Source: a virus. Taken from it: DNA of 31,339 nucleotides. Below the pieces are notes generated by a model, which was given only the letters and a program-made list of their open reading frames with translations, was not told the DNA's origin and did no database searches. A program made the translations under genes and the position numbers. Below are positions 5,124 to 13,365 of the stretch, piece after piece (position 1 is the stretch's first letter; the number at the start of each line of letters is the position of its first letter). The DNA is taken from positions 1-31,339 of the IMG/VR virus record IMGVR_UViG_3300045988_041366. One strand, 5' to 3'.

Positions 5124-6520
<1,397 letters not shown>

Positions 6521-6524
<4 letters not shown>

Positions 6525-6727
6525 TTCAAGAAGACTGTTTCGCATACTGGCCGAGCAGGTGCAAGGCATTAAAACGGATGGTCTGTGCAGAGCAAGATTA
6601 TTGCAAGTTTTACAAGACCAAAGAGCAACACAAGACGGATTTATTTAACAGTGAAGCGCGAATCCGCAAGCTTTACGGCGTTTCACCCGAAAAATTTTTA
6701 GAAGATAGAGGTATTATTGATGATTAA
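6521..6727 (+). CDS. Hypothetical Cys-containing protein (68 aa)
   Basis: RBS GGGAGG. The start overlaps the previous stop (ATGA). Confidence 0.5.
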
Positions 6728-7085
6728 CAATGTAACACTTATCGGAAGACTGACCGCAACGCCTGAACTCAGGAAGACCAACACAGGCAAAACAGTAGTA
6801 TCATTTTGTATCGCCGTGGAAAGACGATTTGACCGCGCCACATCGGATTTTATCAACATCGTGGCATGGAACAAGACCGCAGAATTTGTCAATAAGTATT
6901 TTGCAAAAGGCGATTTAATTGCCTTGACTGGCAGCATACAGACTCGCAAATATGAAGACAAGGACGGCAACAAGCGCACAGCGTTTGAAGTACTGGCGGA
7001 TGATGTCAGCTTCTGCGGTAAGAAAGAGAAGTCCTCAGAGCCTGATTTTGAGGAAATAAAGGTAAGCGGTGACTTGCCGTTTTGA
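6720..7085 (+). CDS. ssb: Single-stranded DNA-binding protein
   Basis: It has an OB-fold signature (MINNVTLIGRLTATPELRKTNTGKTVVSFCIAVERRF...NIVAWNKTAEF...GSIQTRKYEDKDGNKRTAFEV) and the acidic tail ...DFEEIKVSGDLPF. Confidence 0.9.
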   Translation: MINNVTLIGRLTATPELRKTNTGKTVVSFCIAVERRFDRATSDFINIVAWNKTAEFVNKYFAKGDLIALTGSIQTRKYEDKDGNKRTAFEVLADDVSFCGKKEKSSEPDFEEIKVSGDLPF

Positions 7086-8588: not shown

Positions 8589-9422
8589 ATGTTTGACGAG
8601 CTTATCAACGAGCTGGAGCAAAAATCAAAAGAAGCCGTCAAGACGAACGAGGGCGATTATATCGAAAACAATCTGCTGCACTGCGGCAAATGTCACACGC
8701 CGAAACAGTGCGAGGTCATTATCTGCGGCAAGCTTCGCCGTCCGTATTGTCTGTGTAAATGCGAGTCCGAGCGCGTGAAGGCAGAAGAGCAGGAAAAGAA
8801 ACAGCGCGAAAGAGAAGCGAGGATAGCCAAAAGGATAGAAATTGCGTTCGACGATTCGACGATGCGCGAAATGACTTTTGAAAAAGACGACAAGCTAAAT
8901 CCGAAGCTGTCAAACGCGTTTGAAAAGTATGTTGAAGACTTCGCGGCAATGCGCGACAGAGGACAGGGGCTTTTACTGTTCGGGGAAGTCGGATGCGGAA
9001 AGACCTATTATGCGGCGGCTATCGCAAACGCTTTACTTGATAAAGGCTATTCGGTCAGATTTACTAACTTCGCTCGAATAGCAAACGAACTCGGAGCAAC
9101 ATTCGACAAGCAGGATATATTCGACGAGTTAAACAGTTATAGTCTGCTGGTACTGGACGACCTTGCGGCAGAAAGAAAAACAGAGTATATGGCAGAAGTC
9201 GTTTACAATGTAATAGACGCAAGATATCGCGCAGGACTGCCGGTGATTATAACAACTAACCTGACGAGAGAAGAGCTGCTGTATCCAGCAACGATAACGG
9301 AGCGACGCATATATGACCGCATCCTCGAAAAGTGTGTGGCGGTAGAGGTAAAGAACGAAAACCGCAGGCAAAAGGATTTGGGCAAGAGTCAAAAAGAAAT
9401 GCGTGAATTTTTAGGATTATAA
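8589..9422 (+). CDS. DnaC/IstB-like AAA+ helicase loader with an N-terminal Cys cluster
   Basis: Walker A is LLLFGEVGCGKTYYA and Walker B is LLVLDDLAAE. The N-terminal region carries HCGKCH...CLCKC. The ATG at 8589 is better spaced from GGAGA; an alternative ATG lies at 8580. Confidence 0.75.
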   Translation: MFDELINELEQKSKEAVKTNEGDYIENNLLHCGKCHTPKQCEVIICGKLRRPYCLCKCESERVKAEEQEKKQREREARIAKRIEIAFDDSTMREMTFEKDDKLNPKLSNAFEKYVEDFAAMRDRGQGLLLFGEVGCGKTYYAAAIANALLDKGYSVRFTNFARIANELGATFDKQDIFDELNSYSLLVLDDLAAERKTEYMAEVVYNVIDARYRAGLPVIITTNLTREELLYPATITERRIYDRILEKCVAVEVKNENRRQKDLGKSQKEMREFLGL

Positions 9423-9424
9423 GC

Positions 9425-9463
9425 AAAAAAACTATTGACAAAAGCGGCGCGATGATATATAAT
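9425..9463 (+). promoter_or_regulatory. Perfect consensus promoter (cassette copy D)
   Basis: aaaaaaactaTTGACA (9435-9440), 17-nt spacer, TATAAT (9458-9463), then ATAG. Confidence 0.7.
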
Positions 9464-9485
9464 ATAGTAAAAGGAGGTAAACAAA

Positions 9486-9896
9486 ATGAAGATAGTTTTA
9501 GACGATGGAGCATACAAGCCCTACAAGGCACATCCCGAAGATGCAGGATTTGACATCATGTCAAGAGAGTGTCGGATAGTCCCGGCGCAGGGAAGCGCGA
9601 TATTTGACACAGGCGTACATATCGAGATACCGCAAGGGTTCGTCGGATTCCTCAAGAGCAAGAGCGGACTTAATGTCAAACACGGCATAACGAGCGAGGG
9701 CGTTATTGACGCGGGCTATACAGGCAGTATTTGCGTCAAGCTTTACAACAACACCCGGATTCCCTACATGGTCGAAAAGGGCGATAAGATATCGCAGCTC
9801 GTCATTTTGCCGATTTACAGCGACGAGCTTGAAGTCGTAGATAGTCTTGACGATACGGCACGCGGCAACAACGGATTCGGTTCAAGCGGGAGGTAA
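9486..9896 (+). CDS. dut: dUTP pyrophosphatase (trimeric dUTPase)
   Basis: AGFDI, GLNVKHGITSEGVIDAGYTGSI, the DKISQLVI motifs and the C-terminal ARGNNGFGSSGR are present. Confidence 0.9.
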   Translation: MKIVLDDGAYKPYKAHPEDAGFDIMSRECRIVPAQGSAIFDTGVHIEIPQGFVGFLKSKSGLNVKHGITSEGVIDAGYTGSICVKLYNNTRIPYMVEKGDKISQLVILPIYSDELEVVDSLDDTARGNNGFGSSGR

Positions 9897-9901
9897 ACAA
9901 G

Positions 9902-10066
9902 ATGAATGAAGATTACATGAAGCTCAAAGAGTTCGCACAAAATCGCCTCAACGATAGCTGCAGAAACGACGATGACTACGATATTAGATATTGGGGCGGC
10001 TATATCGACGGACTGAATGCGCTGCATAAGAAAATGGTAGGTGAAGAAGATGAAGTGCGCGATTGA
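9902..10066 (+). CDS. Small hypothetical protein (54 aa). Coding in the downstream stretch 10050-10207 is ambiguous.
   Basis: The ATG lies 5 nt after the GGGAGGTAA embedded in the dut 3' end. Two competing short ORFs follow: ATG 10050 (43 aa, RBS AGGTGA), and the same-frame continuation after TGA 10064-10066 (Cys-rich ...CRKNFTFLCKDCKKFVNYETYSYCEEYDG...). Confidence 0.4.
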   Translation: MNEDYMKLKEFAQNRLNDSCRNDDDYDIRYWGGYIDGLNALHKKMVGEEDEVRD

Positions 10067-10213
10067 AGCGTTGAAAGAGTGCATCTCTGCAGAAAAAATT
10101 TTACATTCCTTTGCAAGGATTGTAAAAAATTTGTCAATTACGAAACTTATAGCTATTGTGAAGAATATGACGGACTTGTGAAAGAGAACGCTATTGCAGC
10201 AGGATAAAAATAG

Positions 10214-10255
10214 ACGGCACGGGGCAATAACGGATTCGGCTCGAGCGGGAGGTAA
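10214..10255 (+). pseudogene. Remnant of a second dUTPase 3' end (encodes TARGNNGFGSSGR-stop)
   Basis: 38 of 42 nt are identical to 9855-9896, and all four differences are synonymous in the dut frame. Stops lie immediately upstream. Its GGGAGG serves as the RBS for the methyltransferase. Confidence 0.8.
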
Positions 10256-10258
10256 GAA

Positions 10259-11488
10259 ATGGATTGGAACAAAACGGTGACGAAAAGTGGAACGCCGATT
10301 AAGCTTTTAATTGGAGGTAGCCCTTGCACAAAGTGGAGCATAGCACAGAAAAACGGACGCGAAGTTCTGCCGGAAGGTATAGGTTGGGAGCTGTTCGAGA
10401 ACTATCGGATAGCGAAAGAGAAATTCCAGTCCGACATTTTCTTATATGAGAATAACAAGTCGGCAGCTCAGCCCATAAAAGACGCGATTTATTCTGCCCT
10501 TGGAGGGGGCAAAGACTCATCAGTTCGGCTTACGCACATAAACAGTGCGTTGGTTTCGGCGCAACATCGTGAGAGGTTTTATGTTACGAATTTTGGCGAT
10601 ATAGAACAGCCGGAAGATAGAGGAATCTTGTTACGTGATGTGCTTGAGACTGATTGGGCTACCGGGCGGGATAATTATTATTGGCTTGGGTCGGTTGTAC
10701 CAGTCAATACGACCGCCGACGGCAAAGCAAGGACTGTTAAAGCGCAGTATTATAAAAGCGGGATGGCTAACTTTGTTACAAATGGCGGGTATTCCGCAAC
10801 CGCTGTTGCAACGCCGATACGCATAGGAACTATAGAGAGCAATGCAAAGAATAAGTCGCACGACAGCAAACAATATCGTGTATATAGTCCCGACGGAAAA
10901 GCAACTACGCTTTGTGGACAAGGTGGCGGAGTCGGCGCAAAAACTGGATCGTATGCCTGCCCCACAAACGAAATTGACGGCAAGCCAATATATATGGTTA
11001 AGAATGGACTAATAACCATTAAGGACAAACAATACCCGATTAAGCTCGCCGATGGCTATTACCTTATACGAAAGCTTACGCCTACAGAATGCGAGAGATT
11101 GCAGACCATGCCGGACGGCTACACTGCCGCAGTAAGTAACAGCCAAAGATATAAAGCTCTCGGCAACGGATGGACGGCAGAAGTTATTATACATATCTTG
11201 AATCATGCTCTTAAAGATGTCCCGAGAGACAAAGAGCTTGTAGTCCTGTCTATGTACGACGGCATAGCAACTGGTCGGTATTGCCTGGATAAAATGGGCT
11301 TTACGAATGTTAAGTATTATGCCTATGAAATAGACCCCTATGCGATAAAGATAGCGATGTCAAACTATCCCGATATCATCCAGTTAGACTGGGACGGTGA
11401 AACGGTGTTTGTGCGGGGCGAATTCAAAGATTTGTGTCCGATGTGCATGGAAAAGCTAATGAAATGGTTTGAAAGCGAGGATGATTAA
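10259..11488 (+). CDS. DNA (cytosine-5) methyltransferase with circularly permuted motif order (IV, VI, VIII, TRD, IX, X, then I, II, III)
   Basis: Motif IV is LLIGGSPCTKWS (aa 16-27). Motif VI is FLYENNKS (aa 61-68). Motif VIII is INSALVSAQHRERFYVTN (aa 94-111). Motifs IX and X are RKLTPTECERLQTMPDGYT and RYKALGNGWTAEVIIHIL. Only then come motif I VVLSMYDGIATG (about aa 328-339) and motifs II/III YAYEIDPYAIKIAMSNYPDIIQL. Confidence 0.75.
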   Translation: MDWNKTVTKSGTPIKLLIGGSPCTKWSIAQKNGREVLPEGIGWELFENYRIAKEKFQSDIFLYENNKSAAQPIKDAIYSALGGGKDSSVRLTHINSALVSAQHRERFYVTNFGDIEQPEDRGILLRDVLETDWATGRDNYYWLGSVVPVNTTADGKARTVKAQYYKSGMANFVTNGGYSATAVATPIRIGTIESNAKNKSHDSKQYRVYSPDGKATTLCGQGGGVGAKTGSYACPTNEIDGKPIYMVKNGLITIKDKQYPIKLADGYYLIRKLTPTECERLQTMPDGYTAAVSNSQRYKALGNGWTAEVIIHILNHALKDVPRDKELVVLSMYDGIATGRYCLDKMGFTNVKYYAYEIDPYAIKIAMSNYPDIIQLDWDGETVFVRGEFKDLCPMCMEKLMKWFESEDD

Positions 11489-11917
11489 ATGGCTGATGCA
11501 GACAGATGCGTCTGTTGTGACGCGATAATTCCCGAGGGACGACAGATATGTCCGCAATGTGAGCGCAAAAGATATATATACACTATCCCCGATATCCCAC
11601 CGTCGTTAAACAAGTTCGCGGGGCGTGAAAATGTATGGGCTTACAGAGCGGACAAAAAGCAGTGGCAAGCCCTTTGCGCGGTGTACTGCCGCCCGAAGCC
11701 CGACATTCCGATAAAAAAGTGCGTTGTCAGAATTACATACTTTTTCCGCACAAGGCAACGGCACGACCCGGACAATTACAACGGCAAGTTCATCCTTGAC
11801 GGCTTGCGGGAAGCCGGGATAATCGAAGATGACAGCTTTTCAAATGTCGAGCTTCAGCTCTGCGGCAGCTATGACAAAGAAAACCCGAGAACAGAAATAA
11901 TGATAATGGAGGAATAA
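11489..11917 (+). CDS. rusA: RusA-family Holliday junction resolvase with an N-terminal zinc ribbon
   Basis: CVCCDAIIPEGRQICPQC is followed by IPPSLNKF...RHDPDNYNGKFILDGLREAGIIEDDS (RusA catalytic Asp region). Confidence 0.7.
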   Translation: MADADRCVCCDAIIPEGRQICPQCERKRYIYTIPDIPPSLNKFAGRENVWAYRADKKQWQALCAVYCRPKPDIPIKKCVVRITYFFRTRQRHDPDNYNGKFILDGLREAGIIEDDSFSNVELQLCGSYDKENPRTEIMIMEE

Positions 11918-11919
11918 CA

Positions 11920-12294
11920 ATGCACGAAACAAGAGATGCAGCGCGTGAGCTGCGAATGCAGGGCTTAACCTTTGCAGAAATAGGCAAAAGGCTTGGAGTG
12001 TCAAAACAGAGAATCGCACAGTGTTGCGCAGGAATGAACCCCGAAGCAACGGCTTGGGCTTGCCGCATAAAAGACCTCGACTGCATAATTTACCCAAATC
12101 TTAAAAAGTGGATGCTGGAAAACAAAGTATCAATATCTGAGATGATGCGCAGAACAGGACAGGACACAGGGAGCAGGCGTTCTGAAAGCTTCAGAAACAA
12201 ACTAAAGGGAAGAACGCAACTGACAATAACCGATATAAAAAAAATACTCGCCGTGACTGGCGGAACTTTTGAACAAATGTTCACAACTGATTGA
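11920..12294 (+). CDS. HTH DNA-binding protein (sigma-70 region 4 / LuxR-like HTH, then a second HTH-like segment); candidate transcriptional regulator
   Basis: RBS GGAGGA. LRMQGLTFAEIGKRLGVSKQRIAQ is present. The gene ends inside the -35 of the next promoter. Confidence 0.5.
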   Translation: MHETRDAARELRMQGLTFAEIGKRLGVSKQRIAQCCAGMNPEATAWACRIKDLDCIIYPNLKKWMLENKVSISEMMRRTGQDTGSRRSESFRNKLKGRTQLTITDIKKILAVTGGTFEQMFTTD

Positions 12295-12319
12295 TTTTTA
12301 TTGCTGGTTATGATATAAT
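12291..12319 (+). promoter_or_regulatory. Extended -10 promoter (TTGATT-17-TGaTATAAT)
   Basis: TTGATT lies at 12291-12296, TG at 12311-12312 and TATAAT at 12314-12319. Confidence 0.6.
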
Positions 12320-12337
12320 ATTATGCGGAGGGATATT

Positions 12338-12925
12338 ATGCAGATAATACAGAAAAAGCTTGCGGACATTGTGCCGTATGCAAACAACACAAAGAAGCAC
12401 GACGAGACGCAGATTAAAAATGTCGCGGAAAGCATCAAGAAATACGGCTGGGTTCAACCGCTTGTCATAGACGACGACGGAACAATCGTTATCGGTCACT
12501 GCCGCGCCCTTGCAGCTGAGAAGCTGGGAATGGAAGAAGTGCCTTGCGTAGTGGTTAGCGACCTGACGGAAGAAGAAATAAACGCTCTGAGAATCGTTGA
12601 CAACAAGACGAACGAAAGCCCGTGGGACTTTGACTTGTTGAGTGCGGAGCTGCCTGAAATTGATTTAAGCGATTTTGAGTTTGATTTTGACTTTGGCGGG
12701 GAGAATTATTCACCCGATGACTTTGGAGAAGATTTTAGTCTTGCAGACGGTGAAAAGCCGGAAATTTGTCAAATGACATTTACTCTGCACACGCGGCAGA
12801 AAGAACTTATCGAGTACGCTATTCAACAGGTGAAAGAAAGCGTTTCAGAAACCTTTGGAAACACGAACGCAAACGGCAACGGGTTGTACGAGGTGGTAAG
12901 ACAATGGGCAGAGCAAAAGAAATAA
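12338..12925 (+). CDS. ParB N-terminal (ParB/Srx nuclease-like) domain protein with an acidic linker
   Basis: RBS GGAGGG. LADIVPYANNTKKHDETQIKNVAESIKKYGWVQPLVIDDDGTIVIGHCRALAAEKLGMEEVPCVV..LTEEEINALRIVDN matches the ParBc pattern usually fused to phage methylases. Confidence 0.7.
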   Translation: MQIIQKKLADIVPYANNTKKHDETQIKNVAESIKKYGWVQPLVIDDDGTIVIGHCRALAAEKLGMEEVPCVVVSDLTEEEINALRIVDNKTNESPWDFDLLSAELPEIDLSDFEFDFDFGGENYSPDDFGEDFSLADGEKPEICQMTFTLHTRQKELIEYAIQQVKESVSETFGNTNANGNGLYEVVRQWAEQKK

Positions 12926-13365
12926 TAGTGAAGGTCATTCCAGCGAAAATCGCAGTGCCGTTTATAAAGAAAAACCATTATAGCGGCAAAGTTGTAAATA
13001 ACAGTTGTCTCCATTTCGGCGCGTTCCTTGACGGGAAGCTGCACGGCGTGATGTCATTCGGTCCAAGTTTGGACAAGGCGAAAATGCAGGGACTTGTAAC
13101 TGGAACAGGCTGGAACGAGTTTTTGGAGTTAAACCGAATGGCGTTCGACGATTACCTGCCTCGCAACGCGGAAAGCTATTGCATAGGAAAATGTATGCGA
13201 CTAATCAAAAAAAACGCGCCGCAAATTAAATGGGTTGTATCGTTTGCTGATGCGTGTTCTTGTGGCGACGGAACGATATACCGCGCAAGCAATTTTGTTC
13301 TTACGGACATAAAGCCCAACAATAATTTAGTCTTGCTTCCCAGCGGGGAAAAATTCACAAAATGA
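12904..13365 (+). CDS. Mom-family (GNAT-like DNA adenine modification) protein, N-terminal part; interrupted by a frameshift
   Basis: ATG at 12904 lies after GAGGTGG. KKNHYSGK...FGAFLDGKLHGVMSFG...ELNRMAF...PRNAESYCIG...WVVSFADACSCGDGTIYRASNF matches my memory of the Mom-family pattern (HHY, ELNR, N.ES, SyAD, G.IY.AsN). Confidence 0.6.
   Translation: MGRAKEIIVKVIPAKIAVPFIKKNHYSGKVVNNSCLHFGAFLDGKLHGVMSFGPSLDKAKMQGLVTGTGWNEFLELNRMAFDDYLPRNAESYCIGKCMRLIKKNAPQIKWVVSFADACSCGDGTIYRASNFVLTDIKPNNNLVLLPSGEKFTK

Follow-up and report, generated by a model that had tools for sequence, protein, structure and literature searches.

A natural circular permutation between motifs III and IV in DNMT3-like C5 DNA methyltransferases of gut phages, with a fusion-damaged copy in one viral genome

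The 31,339-nucleotide stretch of viral DNA analysed here over its whole length (positions 1 to 31,339 of IMG/VR record IMGVR_UViG_3300045988_041366, referred to as the window) carries, at 10259..11488, a single open reading frame (ORF) for a cytosine-5 (C5) DNA methyltransferase. In this protein the catalytic half and the target-recognition region precede the motifs for binding of S-adenosylmethionine (AdoMet). Comparison of the motifs with those of characterized enzymes supports the view that the chain of a C5 DNA methyltransferase has here been circularly permuted in nature. With good confidence, the protein is assigned to a permuted family of DNMT3-like, AdoMet-dependent C5 methyltransferases, here from a temperate gut phage probably infecting Clostridia and in a copy damaged by gene fusion. 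The original prediction, made from the letters of the window alone, had treated it as a singular phage enzyme; instead, it is one member of a very large family distributed over phages and prophages of gut and rumen Clostridia. The interest lies mainly with this family, of which the window copy is a recently damaged member. The parts of the gene are as follows.

10246..10252 (about), + strand: Shine-Dalgarno sequence GGGAGG, 6-7 nt before the methyltransferase ATG, inside the second copy of a 42-nt repeat (see below)
10259..11488, + strand: complete ORF of the permuted C5 DNA methyltransferase, 409 amino acids plus stop, its 3' end derived by fusion from part of a foreign gene
10259..10297, + strand: N-terminal extension, residues 1-13 (MDWNKTVTKSGTP), subfamily-specific
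10298..10339, + strand: motif IV, residues 14-27 (IKLLIGGSPCTKWS), strand beta-4 with the catalytic Cys23; aligned to the Pro-Cys of DNMT3A, invariant in the family, predicted local distance difference test (pLDDT) score about 90
10436..10456, + strand: motif VI, residues 60-66 (IFLYENN), glutamate motif of the ENV type; E64 and N65 invariant in the permuted family, within the PF00145 match
10556..10582, + strand: motif VIII, residues 100-108 (SAQHRERFY), QxRxR type; S100, R104 and R106 invariant, aligned to DNMT3A
10649..11068, + strand: variable target-recognition region, residues 131-270, with two modules resembling target-recognition domains (TRDs); one to three modules in close relatives, low AlphaFold confidence
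Residues 155-163, + strand: TRD-like module B, around GKARTVKAQ, in the variable region
Residues 213-224, + strand: TRD-like module C, around GKATTLCGQGGG, in the variable region
11069..11125, + strand: motif IX, residues 271-289 (RKLTPTECERLQTMPDGYT); in the PF00145 and DNMT3A alignments, E277 invariant
11147..11203, + strand: motif X, residues 297-315 (RYKALGNGWTAEVIIHILN), the C-terminal helix of the canonical enzyme; aligned to HhaI 271-314 and to DNMT3A, N303 and W305 invariant
11204..11236, + strand: linker of 11 residues, 316-326 (HALKDVPRDKE), bridging the former C-terminus at motif X and the former N-terminus at motif I
11237..11275, + strand: motif I, residues 327-339 (LVVLSMYDGIATG), strand beta-1 and glycine-rich AdoMet loop; aligned to DNMT3A/3B residues 6-20 (VLSLFDGIATG), pLDDT 82-96
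11315..11356, + strand: motif II, residues 353-366 (YYAYEIDPYAIKIA), with Glu357 as the expected ribose-binding acidic residue; aligned to DNMT3A, E357 invariant
11363..11383, + strand: first half of motif III, residues 369-375 (NYPDIIQ, strand beta-3), the last residues of methyltransferase origin
11384..11488, + strand: foreign tail, residues 376-409 and stop (LDWDGETVFVRGEFKDLCPMCMEKLMKWFESEDD), the 3' half of a zinc-ribbon gene in place of the family end CGDAFxVR(xxDW..)

Instead of the canonical succession I to X, the protein reads IV-VIII, target-recognition region, IX-X and I-II(III). The Pfam model PF00145 matches residues 13-315 at model positions 59-320 of 324 (E 4e-19; 69.6 bits at a cut-off of 22), and the first 58 model positions are not found at the front of the protein. 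When the C-terminal piece was searched in isolation it aligned to PF00145 positions 3-50 with E = 0.27. The match to TIGR00675 reached 67.7 bits and stays under the cut-off of 100.65. A phmmer search against the PDB resolved the same rotation into three blocks of DNMT3A: residues 6-55 (motifs I-II) align to query 324-373, residues 74-179 (motifs IV-VIII) to query 12-118, and residues 215-277 (motifs IX-X) to query 251-314. Membership in the C5 methyltransferase superfamily follows from the PF00145 score together with motifs IV, VI, VIII, I and II: the Pro-Cys of motif IV is present, with Cys23 of GGSPC 22 residues from the start of the chain, and both the glycine-rich loop (YDGIATG, residues 333-339) and the acidic residue of motif II are in place. 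The distance from GNGW in motif X to DG in motif I is 32 residues (G302 to D334), a spacing typical of the family. Neither internal repeats within the methyltransferase gene nor, in a six-frame scan of the window with family segment profiles, any further methyltransferase segments were detected. The original prediction had proposed a circularly permuted C5 methyltransferase, which the swapped order of the Pfam and PDB matches bears out, and had put the breakpoint between motifs III and IV, in agreement with the motif order. Its forecast of two PF00145 hits in swapped model order was matched at residues 13-315, while the second hit, in the C-terminal piece, appeared only at the E value given above. 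Likewise, the reading of NYPDIIQL as motif III stands for strand beta-3; the near-invariant Gly-Asp that should follow (QCGDAF) is missing.

Structure prediction was consistent with this order. The AlphaFold2 model used was computed from a 110-sequence alignment, with a pLDDT mostly between 73 and 96 for residues 9-130 and 271-378 and with strands and helices placed where motifs IV, VI, VIII, IX, X, I and II lie. Values below 50 were obtained for the target-recognition region (residues 133-270) and for the tail (residues 379-395). Significant fold matches in the PDB were limited to C5 methyltransferases, i.e. HhaI, ntDRM/DRM2, DNMT3A/B and HaeIII. Foldseek against viral predicted structures (BFVD) returned generic cytosine methyltransferases with low TM-scores.

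The permuted order is a property of the family. Identical copies of the protein come from at least five independent contigs of different human-gut samples, and all 120 closest homologues (70-92% identical) share its order; in the profile search, 119 of 120 matches were permuted. With the intact close relative P0096 as query, 1.84 billion cluster representatives yielded 9017 matches at E <= 1e-3, 1053 of them at E <= 1e-30. Three segment profiles (IV-VIII, IX-X, I-III) were used to classify the best 150 representatives (50% identity clusters), giving 91 permuted proteins, 29 in normal order and fragments for the rest. A scan of GTDB species genomes found a relative encoded at 19 loci, most of them matching the query at about 14-375 and mostly belonging to Clostridia (Lachnospiraceae, Acutalibacteraceae, Ruminococcus, Herbinix). 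Two cultured strains, Criibacterium bergeronii CCRI-22567 and Lachnospira eligens BIOML-A1, carry the gene in intact form, and so do many metagenome-assembled genomes of Clostridia; the L. eligens version is a minimal one of 300 residues. Existing annotation is sparse: the public examples DAT25388.1 and DAN15653.1 are named just "Cytosine specific methyltransferase [Caudoviricetes sp.]", the JGI label for the window protein is "DNA (cytosine-5)-methyltransferase 3A", and phrog_17284 (unknown function) and phrog_16427 are collinear with the window protein across the motif X-to-I junction. In the GenBank phage collection, megablast of window positions 9400-12400 and tblastn of the tail gave no matches; the phage group is known solely from metagenomes and prophages.

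The ratio of nonsynonymous to synonymous substitution rates (Ka/Ks), calculated for the window gene against three relatives, was 0.08-0.125 overall; for the relocated segment with motifs I-II it was 0.03-0.09. Over permuted sequences 46-81% identical to the window protein, the invariant or nearly invariant residues are G20, P22 and C23 in motif IV, E64 and N65 in motif VI, S100, R104 and R106 in motif VIII, E277 in motif IX, N303 and W305 in motif X, S331, D334 and G335 in motif I, E357 in motif II and the Gly-Asp of motif III. At this level of comparison, the permuted family is shown to be under purifying selection with its catalytic residues kept.

In the wider family the chain mostly begins 5-6 residues before GGSPC, as in 167 of 187 sequences, and most chains start with MKILIGGSPC and contain no DW there. 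In the window, the methyltransferase start is immediately preceded by an in-frame TAA (10253-10255), which leaves no room for a longer N-terminus. In about 20 of the 120 close relatives the annotated protein begins with MP[KE]G[VI]GWELFEN and therefore lacks the Pro-Cys motif. We considered whether relatives starting with MPKGVGWELFEN are truncated or split enzymes and rejected this reading on the basis of the DNA upstream of the annotated start.

L011 3929-4001 (also in L012 and L013): DNA encoding the Pro-Cys motif upstream of the annotated start, directly after the TAA of the previous gene

In L011 this DNA encodes, in frame, I-IKILIGGSPCKKWS (IKILIGGSPC) and offers no ATG, GTG or TTG. The annotations lacking the motif are thus gene-calling artefacts that cut off the catalytic cysteine, and translation would begin either at an ATA/ATT start or by translational coupling.

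Further peculiarities of the family concern motif IV and domain fusions. Inteins are inserted precisely between GGSP and the catalytic cysteine (...GGSP|CF..G...VVHN|CT[YH]WS), so that the +1 cysteine of the splice junction is the methyltransferase nucleophile. They were found in the normal-order relatives P0196, P0199, P0206, P0188, P0223, P0245, P0253 and P0255 and in the permuted relatives P0134 and P0138, where the N-extein measures about 10 residues. For P0174 and P0176 the HN|C junction alone was seen and the GGSP side was not found. Several of the motif IV inteins carry a LAGLIDADG domain. In P0275, P0276, P0317, P0320, P0322 and P0367 a permuted C5 methyltransferase is fused to a Dam-like N6-adenine domain (PF02086).

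At its C-terminus the window copy departs from the family. Relatives end, each time directly before the stop codon, in ...NYPDI[IV]Q[CL]GDAFQIRNF or ...GDAFRVRDDDWKIPD, and some in ...DDDWKIPD. The window DNA is about 92% identical to that of relative L001 through ...ATCATCCAG (encoding IIQ, up to nt 11383) and unrelated beyond this point. The stretch that begins at 11384 and runs past the stop codon has a near-identical counterpart in the IMG/VR phage L007, where it forms the 3' half of a separate gene, and in all six IMG/VR loci that bear it (6/6) the tail sequence belongs to a stand-alone 58-residue zinc-ribbon ORF, M[SA]LAKRCDKCGNIYVFRIRDKTTILDWDGETVFVRGEFKDLCPMCMEKLMKWFESEDD. In line with this, the family profile for motifs I-III matches the window protein at positions 1-53 only: where relatives have QCGDAF or QLGDAF, the window protein has the foreign QLDWDGE, and the family end shortly after motif III (GDAFxVRxxDW) is deleted in favour of 34 foreign residues. 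The parents share 1 nt of microhomology at the 11383/11384 junction. Illegitimate recombination at this site deleted the last 10-16 methyltransferase codons, including the Gly-Asp of motif III, and joined what was left, with the reading frame kept, to the final 34 codons of the neighbouring gene for a zinc ribbon. Because the tail DNA is almost identical to that of the donor, the fusion is taken to be recent. The ancestral arrangement of methyltransferase followed by zinc-ribbon gene was looked for in L008, where the stretch examined contains no methyltransferase.

As to the origin of the permutation, GNGW and DG lie 30 or 32 residues apart in 173 of the 187 permuted sequences, and normal-order relatives read ...GDVFxADFTxYxGxDxLIGGSPC..., which places the cut in the loop before strand beta-4. 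In the tandem relatives P0236, P0129 and P0273 one chain holds two complete methyltransferase units, and in P0272 a permuted unit is followed by a normal-order unit. By their architecture, such tandem-fused relatives are the intermediates that a model of permutation by duplication requires. A second methyltransferase gene beside P0109 in L011 was examined as a possible tandem partner and discarded, as it encodes an unrelated, normal-order C5 methyltransferase. As described in PMC5944983, Peisajovich et al. 2006 subjected M.HaeIII to tandem duplication and truncation in the laboratory and obtained active permutants whose chains begin between motifs II and IV. Most likely, the permutation in the phage family goes back to a single event in which the gene was duplicated in tandem and fused and both ends were then trimmed; the tandem-fused relatives and the uniform motif X-to-I junction argue for this origin by duplication.

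How well a single origin holds was addressed with distance trees. A neighbour-joining tree (BLOSUM62; re-ordered core, 94 representatives, 244 columns) separates permuted from normal-order sequences cleanly, and core sequences are on average more alike inside the permuted group (mean identity 0.61) than between groups (0.53). A single origin of the permuted family is likely, not proven, and strict monophyly of the permuted clade was downgraded to likely in view of the bootstrap values (33-63%).

Several observations weigh against the picture drawn so far, in which one duplication gave rise to a family of cytosine methyltransferases of ordinary fold. In the distance trees, bootstrap support for the split between permuted and normal-order sequences ranged within those 33-63%, depending on which unstable sequences were excluded, and in about half of the replicates seven normal-order representatives fell in or beside the permuted group. 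A shallow alignment of 44 close homologues gave an AlphaFold mean pLDDT of 42. That the strand order in the sheet is correct is assumed from homology rather than taken from model coordinates, and formation of 5-methylcytosine (5mC, or m5C) by the permuted family is inferred, as are its target sites. As for the window copy, the near-invariant Gly-Asp of motif III is missing, the foreign tail was modelled at low confidence, and the family contains further decayed copies (P0017, P0054 and P0072, truncated or frameshifted), which makes loss of function plausible here as well. The GETVFVR of the tail bears only a weak resemblance to the lost GDAFxVR in a MAFFT alignment; against random phage peptides the likeness has a BLOSUM P of about 0.014 (7-mer) or 0.07-0.11 (12-mer), calculated post hoc, and against the family motif III profile it is not significant (P = 0.45). 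With such values, a compensation of the lost motif III by the tail is not claimed.

Considering alternatives, it is scarcely credible that faulty assembly or annotation produced the swapped order, be it by collapse of a tandem duplication or by reading two adjacent fragments as one. Tandem methyltransferase fusions do exist in relatives and the region contains repeats, but the same single ORF with the same junction recurs in independent ENA, JGI, Logan and NCBI assemblies, including isolate genomes. Together with the stop codon immediately upstream of the start, purifying selection on both halves, the fixed motif X-to-I spacing and the lack of internal repeats in the gene, this effectively refutes an artefact. 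Equally far-fetched is the proposal of the original prediction, which took IIQL-DWDGETV and M-DWNKTV for a duplication signature and so saw in the termini of the window protein (M-DWNKTV and L-DWDGETV) remnants of an ancestral tandem duplication. Both ends show a superficial DW..TV likeness, and DW is also found in the ...DDDWKIPD ends of some relatives; however, the C-terminal DWDGETV comes from another gene, nt 11384-11488 being the 3' half of the zinc-ribbon gene, and the N-terminal DW is absent from most of the wider family with its MKILIGGSPC start. The stand-alone zinc-ribbon ORF in six related phages refutes the signature for the window, and from the comparison of the loci the likeness of "DWDGETV" and "DWNKTV" is a coincidence resulting from recent fusion to an unrelated gene. 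What survives of the earlier proposal is the origin itself: tandem duplication is most plausible for the family, given tandem fusions and the uniform junction, and is not recorded at the termini of the window protein. Multiple origins, or reversion of the permuted topology within the DNMT3-like phage clade, are rather improbable. The low bootstrap for a clean split and the normal-order representatives in or near the permuted group would fit such a history, and tandem fusions able to seed new permutations are present. Conversely, linker length and both chain ends are nearly uniform over 187 permuted sequences, and both the neighbour-joining split and the core identities favour a single event.

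With a single permutation retained as the preferred history of the family, the state of the window copy is a separate matter. Its activity is uncertain because the Gly-Asp of motif III was lost by the fusion; the enzyme would be either weakened in AdoMet binding or inactive, and we put its retaining activity at slightly below an even chance. The opposite view is that the gene is a dead remnant in which loss of the Gly-Asp and the half zinc ribbon abolish AdoMet binding or folding, and this is an evenly balanced proposition. So is its corollary, namely that the ORF persists only because the fusion is recent, as the near identity of tail and donor DNA would suggest. Such a remnant would agree with the near-invariance of the Gly-Asp across the family, with a 90%-identity cluster of one member as compared to thousands of intact relatives, with the further truncated or frameshifted copies, with the low pLDDT of the tail and with the additional rearrangement scars in the surrounding region. 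On the other hand, the fusion is in frame, the remaining ORF is intact and all other catalytic residues are kept. Several independent samples yielded the identical protein, a sign that this phage lineage is in circulation, and D377 and D379 lie at +/-1 of the lost aspartate and are followed by Gly-Glu. Moreover, in class I methyltransferases loss of the adenine-contacting acidic residue usually raises the Michaelis constant (Km) rather than abolishing catalysis.

For intact members of the family, the chain would run from strand beta-4 with its Pro-Cys (IV) through motifs VI and VIII, a modular target-recognition region, motifs IX-X and a fixed linker to strands beta-1 to beta-3 (I-III). These parts would fold into an ordinary C5-methyltransferase structure, since in that fold the natural chain ends lie side by side. 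In window numbering, Cys23 would attack C6 of a flipped-out cytosine, assisted by Glu64 and Arg104/Arg106, with the methyl donor AdoMet held by motifs I, II and X. The variable region differs even among relatives more than 70% identical, which carry one to three modules in differing combinations (approximate pattern counts: B-C, 52; A1-B-C, 26; A1-C, 7; A2-B2-C, 4; A2-C, 3). This mosaic suggests exchangeable and possibly multiple sequence specificities. No restriction enzyme or nuclease partner is encoded nearby in the window or in the related loci examined, and the likely role would therefore be that of an orphan methyltransferase protecting phage DNA against host restriction. The gene belongs to a replication and recombination module comprising a DnaC-like loader, dUTPase, the methyltransferase, RusA, a helix-turn-helix protein, a ParB N-terminal-domain (ParB-N) protein and a Mom-like protein, followed by terminase and portal; the neighbouring genes also include a single-stranded DNA-binding protein.

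The surrounding region is marked by further rearrangements, among them a direct repeat of 42 nt.

9855..9896, + strand: copy 1 of the 42-nt direct repeat, made up of the dUTPase gene's 3' end with stop codon and Shine-Dalgarno sequence
10214..10255, + strand: copy 2 (90% identical), just upstream of the methyltransferase start

The repeats mark a 359-bp insert between the dUTPase and methyltransferase genes, which follow each other directly in relative L001. Within the insert, a 54-residue ORF (9902-10066) is a truncated homologue of a 146-residue gene that is located downstream of the methyltransferase in L001. A 42-residue ORF (10079-10207; ...CKDCKKFVNYETYSYCEEYDGLVKENAIAAG), downstream of and slightly overlapping the former in another frame, may be the frameshifted continuation of this truncated Cys-rich gene, which is intact in L001 and L007. 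An 18-nt repeat, GGAGGTAAACAA[AG]ATGAA, is found at the starts of the dUTPase gene and of the 54-residue ORF (9473-9490 and 9889-9906), and conserved gene-boundary sequences of this kind may promote module shuffling. A comparable boundary occurs downstream, where RusA of the window (11486-11510) and an unrelated gene of 122/142 residues, which follows the zinc-ribbon gene in L010/L007, both begin with ATGGCTG[AG]TGCAGACAGA (MADADR / MAGADR).

L007 about 12400-12420, - strand: shared start boundary
L010 about 6450-6470, - strand: shared start boundary

This shared boundary probably mediated a second deletion that placed RusA directly behind the fused tail. In L010, a 75-residue ORF at 6628-6855 (- strand) joins the N-terminus of a dUTPase to a YopX-like C-terminus by in-frame illegitimate fusion, and this fusion in the same phage group suggests that the region is deletion-prone. 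At a distance of 0.9 kb downstream, the window carries two overlapping genes, 12338-12925 (ParB N-terminal domain) and 12904-13365 (Mom-like, PF25680, phrog_1384), a putative second DNA-modification module of the same phage.

In the literature searched, this topology appears only as a laboratory product. Slaska-Kiss et al. 2018 list 27 natural permuted C5 methyltransferases from a REBASE search, all with cuts in the variable region (BssHII/Eco31I type), whereas Type B and C permutants (cuts II/III or III/IV) appear only as engineered M.MpeI/M.SssI or lab-evolved M.HaeIII, with none natural in REBASE (PMC5944983). A topology classification preprint in its December 2025 version places m5C enzymes in classes C and F only (10.1101/2023.12.13.571470). 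The earlier suggestion that the III/IV breakpoint is absent from described natural enzymes agrees with both sources (PMC5944983; 10.1101/2023.12.13.571470). No description of a natural III/IV-permuted C5 methyltransferase was found in the literature searched, which covered few subscription journals and had REBASE outside its scope. We lean, by a modest degree, towards the view that the family represents a third natural prokaryotic m5C topology, so far unrecognised, with a beta-class-like order. It would have originated by a single duplication and trimming in a DNMT3-like phage lineage and spread in phages and prophages of gut and rumen Clostridia, with tandem intermediates extant, recognition modules swapped and inteins at the catalytic cysteine. 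If so, an abundant and conserved family would add a third m5C topology class, nature would be using a topology first made in the laboratory, and permutants previously obtained from directed evolution or design only would have a natural counterpart. The stages of permutation by duplication would be seen side by side in living relatives, as normal-order, tandem-fused, permuted and permuted-plus-normal proteins. The modular recognition region could serve as a natural toolkit for changing 5mC specificity. There is also a practical side: profile-based annotation covers about two thirds of these proteins and gene callers at times drop the catalytic cysteine, so the assignment of methylomes to genes in gut Clostridia and their phages may miss or misjudge such enzymes.

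The closest comparison among natural prokaryotic enzymes is the BssHII type (M.BssHII, M.Alw26I, M2.Eco31I, M.Esp3I and M2.BsaI; zeta/class F), which likewise comprises permuted m5C enzymes with motif X joined to motif I in one chain. There the permuted chain begins within the variable region and reads IX-X-I-...-VIII (PMC5944983), whereas the window family is cut between III and IV. With motifs IV-VIII at the N-terminus, the window enzyme is set apart from the BssHII/Eco31I type by motif order. Plant DRM1/DRM2, relatives of DNMT3, likewise place motif I after motif X; residues 142-252 of ntDRM are collinear with window residues 236-348 across this junction (E 1.4e-5), and DRM structures are among the top fold matches of the window model. 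The DRM enzymes are eukaryotic, possess UBA domains and are cut between motifs V and VI (VI-X, then I-V). The window protein differs in having IV at the N-terminus and I-III at the C-terminus, i.e. motifs IV and V stay with the catalytic half. The engineered "Type C" cpM.MpeI/M.SssI and the lab-evolved M.HaeIII permutants share the topology, with an N-terminus between III and IV; some are active and their route was tandem duplication, but they are laboratory constructs, as opposed to a natural, abundant and selected family. Methyltransferases with a DPPY/SPPF motif have the same subdomain order (IV-VIII, target-recognition region, X, I-III), albeit with other chemistry, no Pro-Cys and different sequence families, none of which has a Pfam match in the window protein. 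By sequence, the closest solved structures are the catalytic domains of DNMT3A and DNMT3B, which align in three blocks with E of about 1e-10 to 1e-8 and share the FDGIATG-type motif I. DNMT3 differs in its canonical order, its very short target-recognition region and its eukaryotic origin, and identity in the structural alignment is about 17-28%. Finally, the multispecific C5 methyltransferases of Bacillus phages (SPR, phi3T, rho11s and H2) are orphan enzymes of canonical motif order with tandem, exchangeable recognition modules that have a T-[LVI]-type core. The variable region of the window family recalls these tandem modules, and its own module mosaic would suggest a possible multispecificity.

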